Source: an uncultured Candidatus Saccharibacteria bacterium
GTDB taxonomy: Bacteria > Patescibacteriota > Minisyncoccia > Phycocordibacterales > UBA1006
Direction: 5' to 3'
NCBI GenBank assembly: GCA_964350165.1
Contig: CAYGJA010000002.1
Location: 1-62,702 of the forward strand
DNA length: 62,702 bases
In this document: piece by piece, positions 2,122 through 5,985 of the stretch
Layout: each line of letters opens with the position of its first letter
Position numbering within the stretch: the first letter of the stretch is position 1
Program-made: the position numbers and the translations under genes
Notes under the pieces: model-generated
Told to the model about the DNA's origin: nothing
Databases searched by the model: none
Seen by the model: only the letters and a program-made list of their open reading frames with translations

Positions 2122-4620
2122 GTGGCTATCCAATTTCAAGAAGAAAAACAAAACAAGCAACTTCTCATGCTTCGCAGAAAAGAAGAAGAAGAAGCTGTGC
2201 AACGCATGTCCCAAAAGACAAATATTCCTTATGTTGATCTGAATTCAATGACCATCGAGACGGATGCTCTAGCGACTATAAAAAAAGAGGTTTCCGAAAA
2301 AATAGAAGCCGCTTGTTTCAAACTCGTAGGAAAAGATCTCTATGTGGCGGTACGTAGCCCAGAAAAACCAGGCCTCCGTGAAGAACTCTTTCGCCTACAG
2401 AATGATGGTTTTGTGGTGGGGGTATATCTGGCATCTCGACGTAGTCTAGAAAAAGCCTGGGATCGTTATGCCGATATTGCTATTTCCAGCAAGAGTCGCT
2501 CTAGCTTCCTTGATATTTCTCCAGCCGCTCTCGATGAGATTTCTAAACGAACAAAAAAGAACGAGGACATTGCGGCCATGATAGAAGAAACCGAAAATAG
2601 CGAGGGGCTCAAGCGTGTCACTCAACTAATAGAAATTATGCTAGGTAGTTCTATTGCCACTGGTTCTTCTGACGTACACATCGAACCCCAAGAAGAAGAA
2701 GTACAAATTCGCTTTCGCCAAGACGGAGTACTTCGAGACATCACCAAATTAGACCACGACACCTACAAAAAAATAAATTCCCGCATCAAAATCCTATCTC
2801 GGCTCAAGTTAACCCAAGACAAGCAAGCCCAAGACGGCCGTTTTACTATCGATTACAAAGATCAAGAAATCGAAATCAGAACATCCATCGTTCCCGGTGC
2901 TTATGGAGAATCAATCGTTATGCGTATCCTAAACCCGGATATTATTTCTATTGAAATGAAATCACTAGGAATTGAACCAAAACTTTTTGAAATTTTGCGA
3001 CGAGAAGTTCACAAGCCAAATGGCCTTATTCTTACTACTGGACCAACCGGTTCTGGTAAAACCACCACCTTGTATGCCTTCCTAAAAGAAATCTACACAC
3101 CAGAAATAAAAATCCTGACCATCGAAGACCCTATCGAATACCACCTCCAAGGGATAACCCAAACCCAAGTAGAAAAAGAAAAAGGCTATACCTTTCTTAG
3201 TGGATTGCGTGGCGCCTTGCGACAAGACCCTGACGCAATCATGGTGGGAGAAATTAGAGACACCGAAACAGCGGAGATTGCCGTTAATGCGTCCCTTACC
3301 GGACACATTGTGCTTTCTACTCTGCACACCAACAACGCAGCCGGTGCTATTCCTCGCATGTTAGACCTTGGCATTAATCCCAAGGTCCTCCCCTCTGCCC
3401 TATCGGTTTCGATTGCTCAGCGCCTCGTTCGAAAACTTGTTCCAGAATGTGCCGAAGCTTACACTCCAGATCAAGCAACCCAAGACCTTATCAGAAAAAT
3501 ATTGAAACAAGCAGACCGAAACGGCAAAGACCTCGCCAGCTATGGTGTTTCTGCTGATCAAGAAATAATCCTTTATCGACCCAAAAAAGAAACTTGTGCC
3601 AAAGGTAATGGCACTGGTTACAAAGGTCGAATCGGTCTTTTTGAGGCAATTCTTCTCGATGAAGCTATCGAAAAAATAATTACCGACAACCCATCAGAGC
3701 GCGAAATCCGTCGCCTGGCTGACAAACAAGGTATTCTTTCCATGCAAGAAGACGGGGTTCTGAAAGCCTTGGCTGGGGTCACCTCTCTCGAAGAAATTCA
3801 AAAAGTAGTAGACCTTACCGAATTACTTGAAGACGAAGAGCCTAAAAAAGAAACTACCCAAAAAACTCCAGCCAAACTAGAGCCACAAAAAAACATTCCA
3901 ACCACCAAAAAGCAATCAGTTCCGGAGAAAAATCCAGCCTTTGATGATTTGCCGGGTTTTGTGATTCCTTCTGCACCAGTAGTCACAGAAGAAAAAGAAC
4001 AATCATCACCACGGGCTATACTAGATGATATGGATCTCGATGCGAAAAAGAGACAAAAAGAACTCGAAGAACGCATGGCTAATATTGAGAATTCGCTTGG
4101 GAAATTAGCCGGCCTAATGGAAAAAACAACAAATCACCTCGTATTCCAACCTCCCCTTTCTCAAGCCAGACCACTTGCCGTTCTCAGGGAGACAAGAAAA
4201 GCAGAGCGGGCTCACCAGGCAAGCCTCGCTGAACTCGGGGATCATCTAAACAACACAGGAGAAACAGATGATTCTACAGTGGCTTCAATAGCGGACAGTA
4301 TTCGAGACCTAGAACTATTGGCACTATTAGATACCATCGACAAACTAGAACAAGAACAGCGTGAACACCCTTCAAAAAATATTACCGAGCAAATAAGAAA
4401 GGCCCGAGAAACAGTAATCGAAATCATAAAAGCAAATCCACCTCAAAACCCAAAAAACAATCTAGGGTCAGCTGGACCGATTCTCAAGCAAGAGCTTGGC
4501 GTTATACTCGACCACCTTTTTGAAGTCGAACGTGACCAGATAGCAAATCCAGAAACAAGCGCCGCCGACAAGCTCCAAGCCATCAAATCACATATTGACG
4601 AAAAGCTCACTATTTCGTAG
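2122..4620 (+). CDS. pilB: Type IV pilus assembly ATPase (PilB/GspE family) with a long C-terminal extension
   Basis: SDVHIEP, TGPTGSGKTTT Walker A, IEDPIEY, LRQDPDAIMVGEIRD, TGHIVLSTLHTN. Confidence 0.88.
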   Translation: MAIQFQEEKQNKQLLMLRRKEEEEAVQRMSQKTNIPYVDLNSMTIETDALATIKKEVSEKIEAACFKLVGKDLYVAVRSPEKPGLREELFRLQNDGFVVGVYLASRRSLEKAWDRYADIAISSKSRSSFLDISPAALDEISKRTKKNEDIAAMIEETENSEGLKRVTQLIEIMLGSSIATGSSDVHIEPQEEEVQIRFRQDGVLRDITKLDHDTYKKINSRIKILSRLKLTQDKQAQDGRFTIDYKDQEIEIRTSIVPGAYGESIVMRILNPDIISIEMKSLGIEPKLFEILRREVHKPNGLILTTGPTGSGKTTTLYAFLKEIYTPEIKILTIEDPIEYHLQGITQTQVEKEKGYTFLSGLRGALRQDPDAIMVGEIRDTETAEIAVNASLTGHIVLSTLHTNNAAGAIPRMLDLGINPKVLPSALSVSIAQRLVRKLVPECAEAYTPDQATQDLIRKILKQADRNGKDLASYGVSADQEIILYRPKKETCAKGNGTGYKGRIGLFEAILLDEAIEKIITDNPSEREIRRLADKQGILSMQEDGVLKALAGVTSLEEIQKVVDLTELLEDEEPKKETTQKTPAKLEPQKNIPTTKKQSVPEKNPAFDDLPGFVIPSAPVVTEEKEQSSPRAILDDMDLDAKKRQKELEERMANIENSLGKLAGLMEKTTNHLVFQPPLSQARPLAVLRETRKAERAHQASLAELGDHLNNTGETDDSTVASIADSIRDLELLALLDTIDKLEQEQREHPSKNITEQIRKARETVIEIIKANPPQNPKNNLGSAGPILKQELGVILDHLFEVERDQIANPETSAADKLQAIKSHIDEKLTIS

Positions 4621-4661
4621 AACCGGAATTCTCTACGGCGAGCATGTTATACTCGACCCAA

Positions 4662-4679
4662 TAAAAAAGGCCTTTCGGC
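4662..4679 (-). terminator. Intrinsic terminator of the ncRNA
   Basis: GGCC-GAAA-GGCC followed by TTTTTT on the minus strand. Confidence 0.7.
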
Positions 4680-4910
4680 CAATCGGTTCCTTTCTTTGTC
4701 AGATATAAATCCCTAAGTAATCGACCTTAAACCATGCGGAAGAAGGCACGGGTAGGCAGCTGAGGAGCATTGCAGAAATCTTGTCTACAAGGACAGGCAC
4801 CACGCAGTCCTTGCTGAAAACCCAATAAGTCGGGAGACCTGATTGCTTAGAGATTTATATCTAGAAAGAAAAGGAAGACAGGGATAACACCTGCCAAAAG
4901 AACTCAATAT
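4662..4910 (-). ncRNA. Structured ncRNA, 6S RNA-like
   Basis: Own sigma70 promoter and terminator; ~30-bp closing stem (4687-4722 with 4841-4876); internal helices whose G-U pairs work only on the minus strand; no ORF of 60 aa or more. Confidence 0.6.
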
Positions 4911-4916
4911 GGAGGT

Positions 4917-4945
4917 ATCTTAGCATGACATATTTTTTTTGTCAA
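4917..4945 (-). promoter_or_regulatory. Sigma70 promoter of the ncRNA
   Basis: TTGACA-17 bp-TAAGAT with extended TG. Confidence 0.75.
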
Positions 4946-4995
4946 GTTTTTTTGTTCACCTCCCTTCTTTTTTGAGCTATACTCTCTATATAATT

Positions 4996-5985
4996 ATGTC
5001 TACAGACAACCAGAATTCAGGAAAAGGCTATTTGGACTATACTTTGCGACCTGATGTCTGGGATGATTATGTTGGTCAAGACGTAATCAAAGCAAATCTA
5101 CATATTTTATTGACCGCCGCCAAGGGGCGCAGCCATCCTCCAGAACACATTCTCCTTTATGGCCCTCCTGGACTAGGAAAAACCACTCTCGCCCACCTGG
5201 TAGCCAAGGAGCTGGATGCTCACATGAAAATAACTTCTGGTCCAGCGATTGAAAAAGTTGGTGATTTGGCTAGCATTCTCACCAATATTCAACCTGGTGA
5301 TGTTGTTTTTATTGATGAGATTCATCGTCTTAATAAAATGGTAGAAGAAATCCTGTATCCAGCCATGGAATCAGGGGTGCTCGATATTATTATCGGCAAG
5401 GGGCCTTCAGCGCGCACCATTCAATTGGAACTGCCTCCTTTTACCCTTATTGCGGCCACAACACGCATTGCCCTTTTGTCCTCCCCGCTTCGTTCGCGAT
5501 TTTCTGGTGGAGTTCATCGTCTGCAATTTTATAGTGAAGAAGAAATAGCCACTATCCTAGCTCGTTCCGCTCGCCTTCTAGATATCGCCGTACCAGATGC
5601 GTCACTAGCAATGATTGCCGAAAGAAGTCGCTACACTCCTCGTACTGCCAATTATTTTCTAAAACGAATTCGTGATTACGCCGAGGTACACAACAACGCA
5701 ATAGTAAATGACGACGTTGTTTCAAAAACACTGCAACTATTAGGGGTAGACCATTTGGGGCTTACCCATAGCGATCGGCATATTCTCGAAACCATTCAAG
5801 ACAAATTCGGCGGAGGCCCGATTGGACTCAAAACACTAGCTGCGGCCACCGGAGAAGAAGATTCTACTATCGAAGAAGTAATTGAACCCTATCTCATCCA
5901 ACGAGGCCTTTTGGAGCGTACCCCGCGCGGCCGCATCACCACCGAACACGCCCAAACACATCTTCAGAAAAATAAAAATAAATAG
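4996..5985 (+). CDS. ruvB: Holliday junction branch migration helicase RuvB
   Basis: [37 protein letters not shown]; start moved to 4996. Confidence 0.97.

Follow-up and report, generated by a model that had tools for sequence, protein, structure and literature searches.

A predicted structured RNA gene in the gap between pilB and ruvB of the Paceibacteria

Analysis of a 62,702-nucleotide stretch of Patescibacteria DNA (hereafter the window) and of its relatives confirms, at the level of sequence comparison, that the gap between pilB and ruvB holds a real, separately transcribed structured-RNA gene with a predicted transcript, and that nearly all of the ultra-small Paceibacteria appear to keep it there. 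The RNA matches no described RNA family and is a new class-wide structured RNA. We consider it probable that the gene stands alone and encodes a stable structured RNA which acts in trans, belongs to an undescribed family restricted to the Paceibacteria (Patescibacteria/CPR) and has a decoy or scaffold role in a ribonucleoprotein.

The CPR/Patescibacteria represent a large share of bacterial diversity with minimal genomes, and their RNA level is almost unstudied. A strongly promoted, single-copy structured RNA that more than 90% of genomes retain, and that spans well over a hundred families within a single class, very probably matters to the biology of these cells. The RNA is in no RNA database, and a new covariance model would improve the annotation of thousands of assemblies. 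It also offers a handle for pull-downs of partner proteins, for quantification in metatranscriptomes and for structure work.

The gene, its neighbours and the predicted fold

The window lies on contig C2 of a genome of 816,893 bp (99.7% complete), a size within the usual range for Patescibacteria. The features of the locus are collected in Table 1. Both neighbours are encoded on the strand opposite to the RNA, and no gene was found downstream on the RNA's own strand. Beyond ruvB the window continues with yebC and then ruvC; ruvA is encoded elsewhere. The promoters of the RNA gene and of ruvB stand back to back, their -35 elements separated by about 10 bp, and any transcript reading through from pilB to ruvB would be fully complementary to the RNA. 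In the pilB-like ATPase, the T2SSE domain ends at about residue 560 of 832 and is followed by a C-terminal extension of about 270 residues without a Pfam match; relatives of the protein align only as far as residue 560.

A preliminary description of this DNA had proposed the promoter and the terminator, and both are confirmed. The promoter scan placed the former at the top of the region, with 10 of 12 matches in addition to its extended -10 element, and transcription is predicted to start near position 4910. The terminator was read directly in the sequence; it is missing from the list returned by the terminator scan because its stem comprises only four pairs.

Table 1. Features of the RNA gene and its surroundings, in positions of the window unless another contig is given
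Feature	Position	Strand	Remarks
RNA gene including promoter and terminator	4945-4662	minus	gap between pilB and ruvB
pilB-like type II/IV secretion ATPase, 832 aa	2122-4620	plus	PF00437, E = 5.6e-114; convergent with RNA gene
ruvB	4996-5985	plus	RuvB_N, E = 2.4e-70; divergent from RNA gene
Promoter	4917-4945	minus	-35 TTGACA 4945-4940; 17-nt spacer; TG 4925-4924; -10 TAAGAT 4922-4917
5' leader	4877-4910	minus	small hairpin GGCAGG..CCTGTC at 4895-4877
P1, 5' arm	4841-4876	minus	holds conserved box AUAAAUCUCUAAGCAA, ~4859-4844
P2, short variable hairpin	4827-4840	minus	AGGUC-UCCC-GACUU
P3, long arm	4750-4823	minus	GGGU/ACCC, CAGC/GCUG, AGGA (4811-4808)/UCCU (4766-4763)
P5 hairpin	4725-4746	minus	CCUU...AAGG; adjoins P1 3' arm
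P1, 3' arm	4687-4722	minus	GAUUACUUAGGGAUUUAUAUCUGACAAAGAAAGGAA; pairs with 4876-4841
Intrinsic terminator	4663-4680	minus	GGCC-GAAA-GGCC-UUUUUU; read directly in sequence
Core matched by covariance model R1	4696-4868	minus	87.8 bits; opposite strand 36.2 bits
Part of the locus in genome G749	C3, L260 19335-19530	minus

The RNA is predicted to be some 170-250 bases long, with a core of about 165 nt. In the window the predicted transcript of 251 nt has a folding energy of -83 kcal/mol (z = -4.7 relative to shuffles). The plus strand of the same region folds as well (z = -6.3), and folding energy alone therefore cannot assign the strand. The closing helix of the preliminary description stands as P1, which ranges from 27 bp, its length in the model, to about 36 bp in the window genome, and the GGGT/ACCC and CAGC/GCTG helices of that description fit the P3 arm of the family. 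Beyond AGGA/UCCU, P3 continues with a 1x2 internal loop, a G-U-rich helix containing UGG/CUG, and a variable tip, which is longer in the window genome than is usual for the family. Two details were not upheld. The supposed unpaired bubble after the closing helix is occupied by the hairpins P2 and P5, and the local hairpin GCAAGGAC/GTCCTTGT, together with a GTAGA/TCTGC helix, represents window-specific alternatives to the family fold, in which AGGA pairs with the distal UCCU.

Distribution, strand and conserved structure

The window genome carries a single copy, the only other matches being the two arms of its own helix. Weak BLAST matches in related genomes have the closing helix AUAAAUCUCUAAGCAA ... 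UUGCUUAGAGAUUUAU in common, enclosing about 105-120 nt, and in the first relatives a TTGACA-17-TGnTAnnnT promoter was read by eye upstream of it. Among public genomes, at least 119 Patescibacteria assemblies match the two-arm pattern, and the assemblies with the element are labelled Paceibacterota, Nomurabacteria, Taylorbacteria, Zambryskibacteria or Minisyncoccia. At the 124 loci that nhmmer oriented unambiguously, ruvB lies directly upstream and divergent in 119, and pilB downstream and convergent in 102.

A covariance model, R1, was built from alignment A2, with the structure checked by hand. Within the same order, R1 matches 274 of 301 genomes (249 of 271 high-quality ones; 167 of 190 genera), with one locus in each. 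In a phylum-wide sample of 401 genomes, matches fall almost only within this order. This near-restriction is a limit of the sensitivity of the model: R1 is tuned to one order, and diverged copies in other orders were found by synteny. Sensitivity across the phylum is thus that of R1 combined with synteny-guided local searches. In the other orders of the class, 29 ruvB loci were taken, of which 26 are adjoined by pilB, and in every one of these 26 gaps the strand that does not encode the two genes holds a promoter and a long-stem RNA. On a small class set, composed of 25 searched gaps and two further class loci from the phylum-wide sample, R1 recovered 24 of the 27 with E values from 1e-29 to 1e-5.

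Outside the class the picture is negative. Of 29 ruvB loci taken from the phylum's other classes, none has pilB as a neighbour and none is matched by R1, and neither R1 nor nhmmer finds a match in G355, a complete genome of 699,981 bp from another class. Hence, under the inferred class and order names, the RNA family appears to be class-wide in the Paceibacteria and, as far as is detectable, confined there. The sole strong out-of-class match is in G631, a genome assigned to another class, where a 2.6-kb contig (C42) carries pilB, ruvB and an RNA of the order's type in the usual synteny. The family-mates of G631 have no such RNA at ruvB, and the contig is probably mis-binned.

The preliminary description had assigned the gene to the minus strand on the strength of G-U pairs and the promoter, and this assignment holds throughout the family. 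On the RNA strand, the paired columns contain 763 G-U or U-G cells against 142 A-C or C-A cells, about five to one. Promoters scoring at least 10 of 13 occur on the RNA strand at 108 of 122 loci; the corresponding numbers are 15 of 122 for the opposite strand and 7 of 122 for shuffles. As the G-U bias and the promoter asymmetry are two independent tests, the strand is settled. The extended -10 TG is present at 110 of 121 family loci. At the other end of the gene, P1 is followed by a perfect terminator hairpin with a U-run at 30 of the 121 loci; at 54 of the 121, the end of P1 carries a U-run of at least five. Across the family, 21 to 140 nt separate the -10 element from the conserved P1 box, and the leader that joins promoter and P1 measures about 0 to 110 nt, its sequence being variable too. 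With a leader of such variable length, the mature 5' end of the RNA may be produced by processing.

The covariation that the preliminary description had suggested looking for among homologues from pilB-ruvB gaps is present at both taxonomic levels. Two alignments were used, one of 100 order-level members aligned to the model (A4) and one of 18 members from other orders of the class (A7). Both were fitted to the model and favour it, and their pairing figures are to be read accordingly. In A4, standard pairs fill 90.8% of cells, as against 77.0% in column shuffles and 40-51% when the 3' partners are slid; both sides change at 41 of 54 pairs, and none of 500 shuffles reaches any observed measure. 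In A7, the corresponding figures are 89.4% of cells against 65.9% in column shuffles, with both-side changes at 47 of 54 pairs. MAFFT and RNAalifold, applied to the first nine sequences independently of the model, recovered P1, P3 and P5 with 22 compensatory pairs.

The helices differ in how they are conserved. P1 covaries in its outer pairs; its inner 16 bp hardly vary within the order and covary across the class, where the compensatory variants CUGUAGGCAA/UUGCCUACAG and CUCCAGACAA/UUGUCUGGAG occur. P2 forms a hairpin of at least 4 bp in 77 of 100 members, and a few lack it; it is conserved neither in sequence nor in length, its segment measuring 13-23 nt with a mean of -3.1 kcal/mol. P5 shows compensatory changes at all nine modelled pairs, with 90-94% of cells paired. 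The most strongly conserved features lie in P3, namely the GG/CC pairs of the AGGA/UCCU helix, followed by the 1x2 internal loop (C opposite UA) and a trio of U-G, G-U and G-C pairs (UGG/CUG). This trio and the GG/CC pairs are invariant or nearly so class-wide and are flanked by covarying pairs; in other orders the UGG/CUG module is frequently capped by a UUCG hairpin. The linkers at the junction are only 0-5 nt long, and the RNA is therefore a four-way junction, formed by a long P1, a weak P2, a long P3 and a stable P5. No convincing additional long-range pairs or pseudoknots were found among the unpaired columns of A4. On the evidence of these alignments, the four-way fold, the P3 module and the P1 box are shown to be under strong purifying and compensatory selection class-wide.

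One genome separates the RNA from its usual surroundings. G749, a 100% complete genome of the same class, has no ruvA or ruvB by tblastn, and its pilB copies sit on other contigs. Its RNA gene is nevertheless intact, with a TTGACA-17-TACAAT promoter and the same P1/P2/P3/P5 fold (z = -8.25), and now lies upstream of an ORF of no assigned function, followed by yebC and ruvC. The position of ruvB in G749 is held by a 291-aa ORF without a Pfam match, with yebC-ruvC kept; the locus lies on C3 (L260 19335-19530, minus strand, and L271 1-2510). The RNA has thus outlasted the loss of both usual neighbours, which speaks for a function exerted in trans and independently of these genes, and against a role that requires RuvAB or is purely cis. 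Together with its position on the opposite strand and its own terminator, this case (the only RuvAB-less one, n = 1) shows that the RNA gene is independent of its neighbours.

Possible roles and partners of the RNA

We infer that the RNA is abundant and stable and acts by binding protein. Its invariant elements, a sequence-specific duplex and a helix-embedded internal loop accompanied by tandem G-U pairs, are typical features of protein recognition; furthermore, there is no conserved single-stranded seed for target pairing, and the leader and helix tips vary freely. A catalytic role, or another role that does not involve protein binding, may also be envisaged. In the mechanism that we propose, a near-consensus promoter of the sigma-70 type would drive transcription of the RNA away from ruvB, ending at the RNA's own terminator facing pilB. 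The transcript would fold into the P1/P2/P3/P5 four-way junction, with the junction-proximal half of P1 conserved in sequence. The P3 module (GG/CC, 1x2 loop, tandem U-G/G-U, G-C) and the P1 box would then provide a docking surface for protein, and the RNA, present in abundance, would act as a decoy or scaffold within a ribonucleoprotein of housekeeping or global-regulatory function. Foremost among candidate partners would be the RNA polymerase holoenzyme, approached by 6S-type logic though without membership of the 6S family.

As regards the nature of this ribonucleoprotein, the RNA may form the core of a new class-wide housekeeping particle in which a dedicated protein, other than RNA polymerase, Ro, Ffh or RuvAB, reads the P3 module and the P1 box. 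We put this forward tentatively, as a serious possibility. If true, it would add a new functional RNA class, with a standing like that of 6S, Y or SRP RNA, in a lineage devoid of SRP.

The second possibility, which we regard as rather doubtful, is that the RNA is a functional analogue of 6S RNA, binding an RNA polymerase of the sigma-70 type as a mimic of the open promoter. 6S RNA consists of a closing stem and a terminal stem-loop with, between them, a large central bubble that is mostly single-stranded; it imitates an open promoter and binds the sigma-70 holoenzyme, and its bubble templates a product RNA of 14-20 nt (PMC3847290). In the analogue, P1 would take the place of the downstream duplex and P3 that of the upstream duplex, and P2 would melt and template a short product RNA. 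The resemblance to 6S RNA (SsrS; RF00013) is considerable in outline: both are stand-alone, single-copy RNAs of about 150-200 nt with their own promoter and terminator, whose two ends pair into a long closing helix opposite a long arm. The proportions of the present RNA are also 6S-like, with the closing stem and long terminal arm around a core of the size given above and a strong promoter. The role of 6S itself seems to be unfilled, as RF00013 scores above its cut-off in none of 26 related genomes, with positive controls. Moreover, P2 is marginal in energy and absent in some members, so that the 5' side is weak enough to open and the RNA may have a 6S-like function.

The differences from 6S RNA lie mainly in the centre of the molecule. 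In 6S RNA this is a large open bubble, whereas here it is a closed four-way junction with a covarying 3' hairpin. Given that all nine pairs of P5 covary, the centre of the RNA is not an open bubble, and a tight junction with such short strands and a stable 3' side is ill-suited to mimicry of an open promoter. In addition, there is no covariance-model similarity, and the conserved sequence modules have no 6S counterpart. All 4227 Rfam 15 models gave only junk matches to the window region (4000-5600, E<=10) and to 20 family members (E<=5), and at these same thresholds the 6S models gave none at all. G355, from another CPR class, has no 6S in its full Rfam inventory and no R1-type RNA, and therefore the absence of 6S is not peculiar to the RNA-bearing lineage. 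This genome offers no case of a complementary distribution, with 6S occurring in the absence of the present RNA. Membership of the 6S family is not supported. The preliminary description had left a choice between a divergent 6S RNA and a new class of non-coding RNA and had proposed an Rfam search that included RF00013; it is the new class that stands, as a strand-specific, covarying, single-copy RNA outside every Rfam 15 family, and the 6S half of the proposal is not supported, in view of the missing model match and the closed junction. Should the functional analogy be true all the same, the RNA would be a new structural solution to polymerase mimicry; if it is not, the RNA defines a new ribonucleoprotein. 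Our search of the literature on 6S RNA or non-coding RNA in CPR found nothing relevant.

The only RF00013 signal among the 26 relatives is sub-threshold (23.1 bits, E = 0.0025) and was seen in G038 at C2:6811-6883 (L132). This locus is unrelated to the pilB-ruvB RNA, which G038 also carries, at C32:15562-15718.

A parallel may be drawn, as an analogy only, with Ms1 RNA of mycobacteria, a 6S-like RNA of about 300 nt that binds core RNA polymerase. It too is lineage-specific, multi-branched and abundant, and occupies a 6S-like niche where canonical 6S is lacking. It differs from the present RNA in its length and its phylum and shares no sequence or model similarity with it.

The near-absolute synteny with ruvB and pilB could reflect a local, cis-acting role rather than descent. 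Transcription of the RNA gene, or pairing of the RNA with a read-through pilB-ruvB mRNA, would in that case control pilB, ruvB or both, and the fold would serve mainly for stability. The invariant position between the two genes, the closely spaced back-to-back promoters and the full complementarity of any read-through transcript are all consistent with such a regulator. We nonetheless consider it improbable: covariation maintains a specific four-way fold with invariant non-helical features, far beyond the needs of an antisense RNA, the G-U pairs reveal selection on the RNA of the RNA-gene strand, and in G749 the RNA is kept at a site that neither ruvB nor pilB adjoins.

More improbable still is a link to RuvAB, in which the four-way junction would mimic a Holliday junction and titrate or load RuvA, RuvB or RuvC, or else serve the adjacent repair genes. 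The four-helix architecture brings this to mind, as do the ruvB-yebC-ruvC order downstream and the head-to-head arrangement with ruvB, which holds in 26 of 29 class-level loci as well as in the order-level majority (119 of 124). Against it, G749 keeps an intact, promoter-driven copy without ruvA or ruvB; the junction has unpaired linkers and its helices are A-form RNA; ruvA lies elsewhere in the genome; and gene order in tiny genomes is widely kept by descent.

Finally, the preliminary description had mentioned a MITE and a folded small-peptide mRNA, and the window genome does have a long inverted repeat and a 23-codon ORF here, but it is hardly conceivable that the locus is a mobile inverted-repeat element, a DNA-level palindrome or a peptide mRNA rather than an RNA gene: it is a single locus in the window genome and one per genome in the order, with synteny fixed over hundreds of genomes, the G-U excess and the promoter are strand-specific, and the ATG is unconserved, its column reading GCT, ATT, TCT, GTT and so on, with at most a few rare members sharing ATG, which is not among the seven commonest codons that cover 85 of 100 aligned members.

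Comparison with known RNAs and other observations

Several established RNAs were considered and set aside. The GAGGAC..UUCUGG segment resembles CR-I of RNase P RNA; the genuine RNase P RNA, however, is at C2:208765-209125, and the segment pairs locally. A cis-regulatory leader or riboswitch does not agree with a strand opposite to both neighbours, an own terminator and the lack of a downstream gene on the same strand. The RNA shows no similarity to 5S rRNA or to any piece of rRNA, and the genome has a 5S candidate at another place. The tmRNA of the genome is likewise found elsewhere (C3:109311-109717); its predicted tag, AKKNNSRVAVKSPFFSAGDFAFAPVVA, is unusually long.

SRP RNA was considered as none is detectable, the models RF00169 and RF01854 having no match in 26 genomes, and was rejected as Ffh and FtsY are missing too. 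In the window genome, tblastn with E. coli Ffh gave a best E of 0.056, and no ORF contains a DTAGR motif. A PF00448 domain is lacking in 119 of 121 genomes of the class, with all 14 control genomes positive. Ffh is also absent from two further complete CPR genomes, G749 and G355, the latter of another class. We found no report of SRP loss in CPR in the literature.

The bacterial Y RNAs (YrlA/YrlB, with Rsr/Ro60) share with the present RNA a long terminal stem with a conserved protein-binding segment and a branched, cloverleaf-like upper module. Unlike them, it has no T-loop or D-loop signatures and no match to the Y-RNA models of Rfam; a Y RNA was rejected as 25 of 26 related genomes, among them the window genome, have no TROVE protein (Ro60; PF05731). 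A likeness in kind exists to the large or medium-sized orphan structured RNAs of Rfam that comparative genomics brought to light (raiA, OLE, ROOL, GOLLD, HEARO), which are lineage-restricted, strongly covarying, highly conserved and were of unknown function at discovery. No model of these matches, and the present RNA is smaller, occupies one syntenic site and occurs in Paceibacteria only.

Other structured RNAs were encountered in the course of these searches. A different Paceibacteria genome has, about 1.3 kb from its RNA gene, a match to the type-P1 twister ribozyme at L137:2972-3050 (minus strand) that comes close to the RF03160 threshold (50.5 bits, gathering score 67.2, E = 2.5e-8); L138:154-231 gives a weaker match. 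In G355, contig C1 carries group I introns at L234 8930-9218 and L246 12981-13261, one inside the 23S rRNA gene and one elsewhere, and the RNase P RNA match of this genome spans 651 nt, which implies large insertions.
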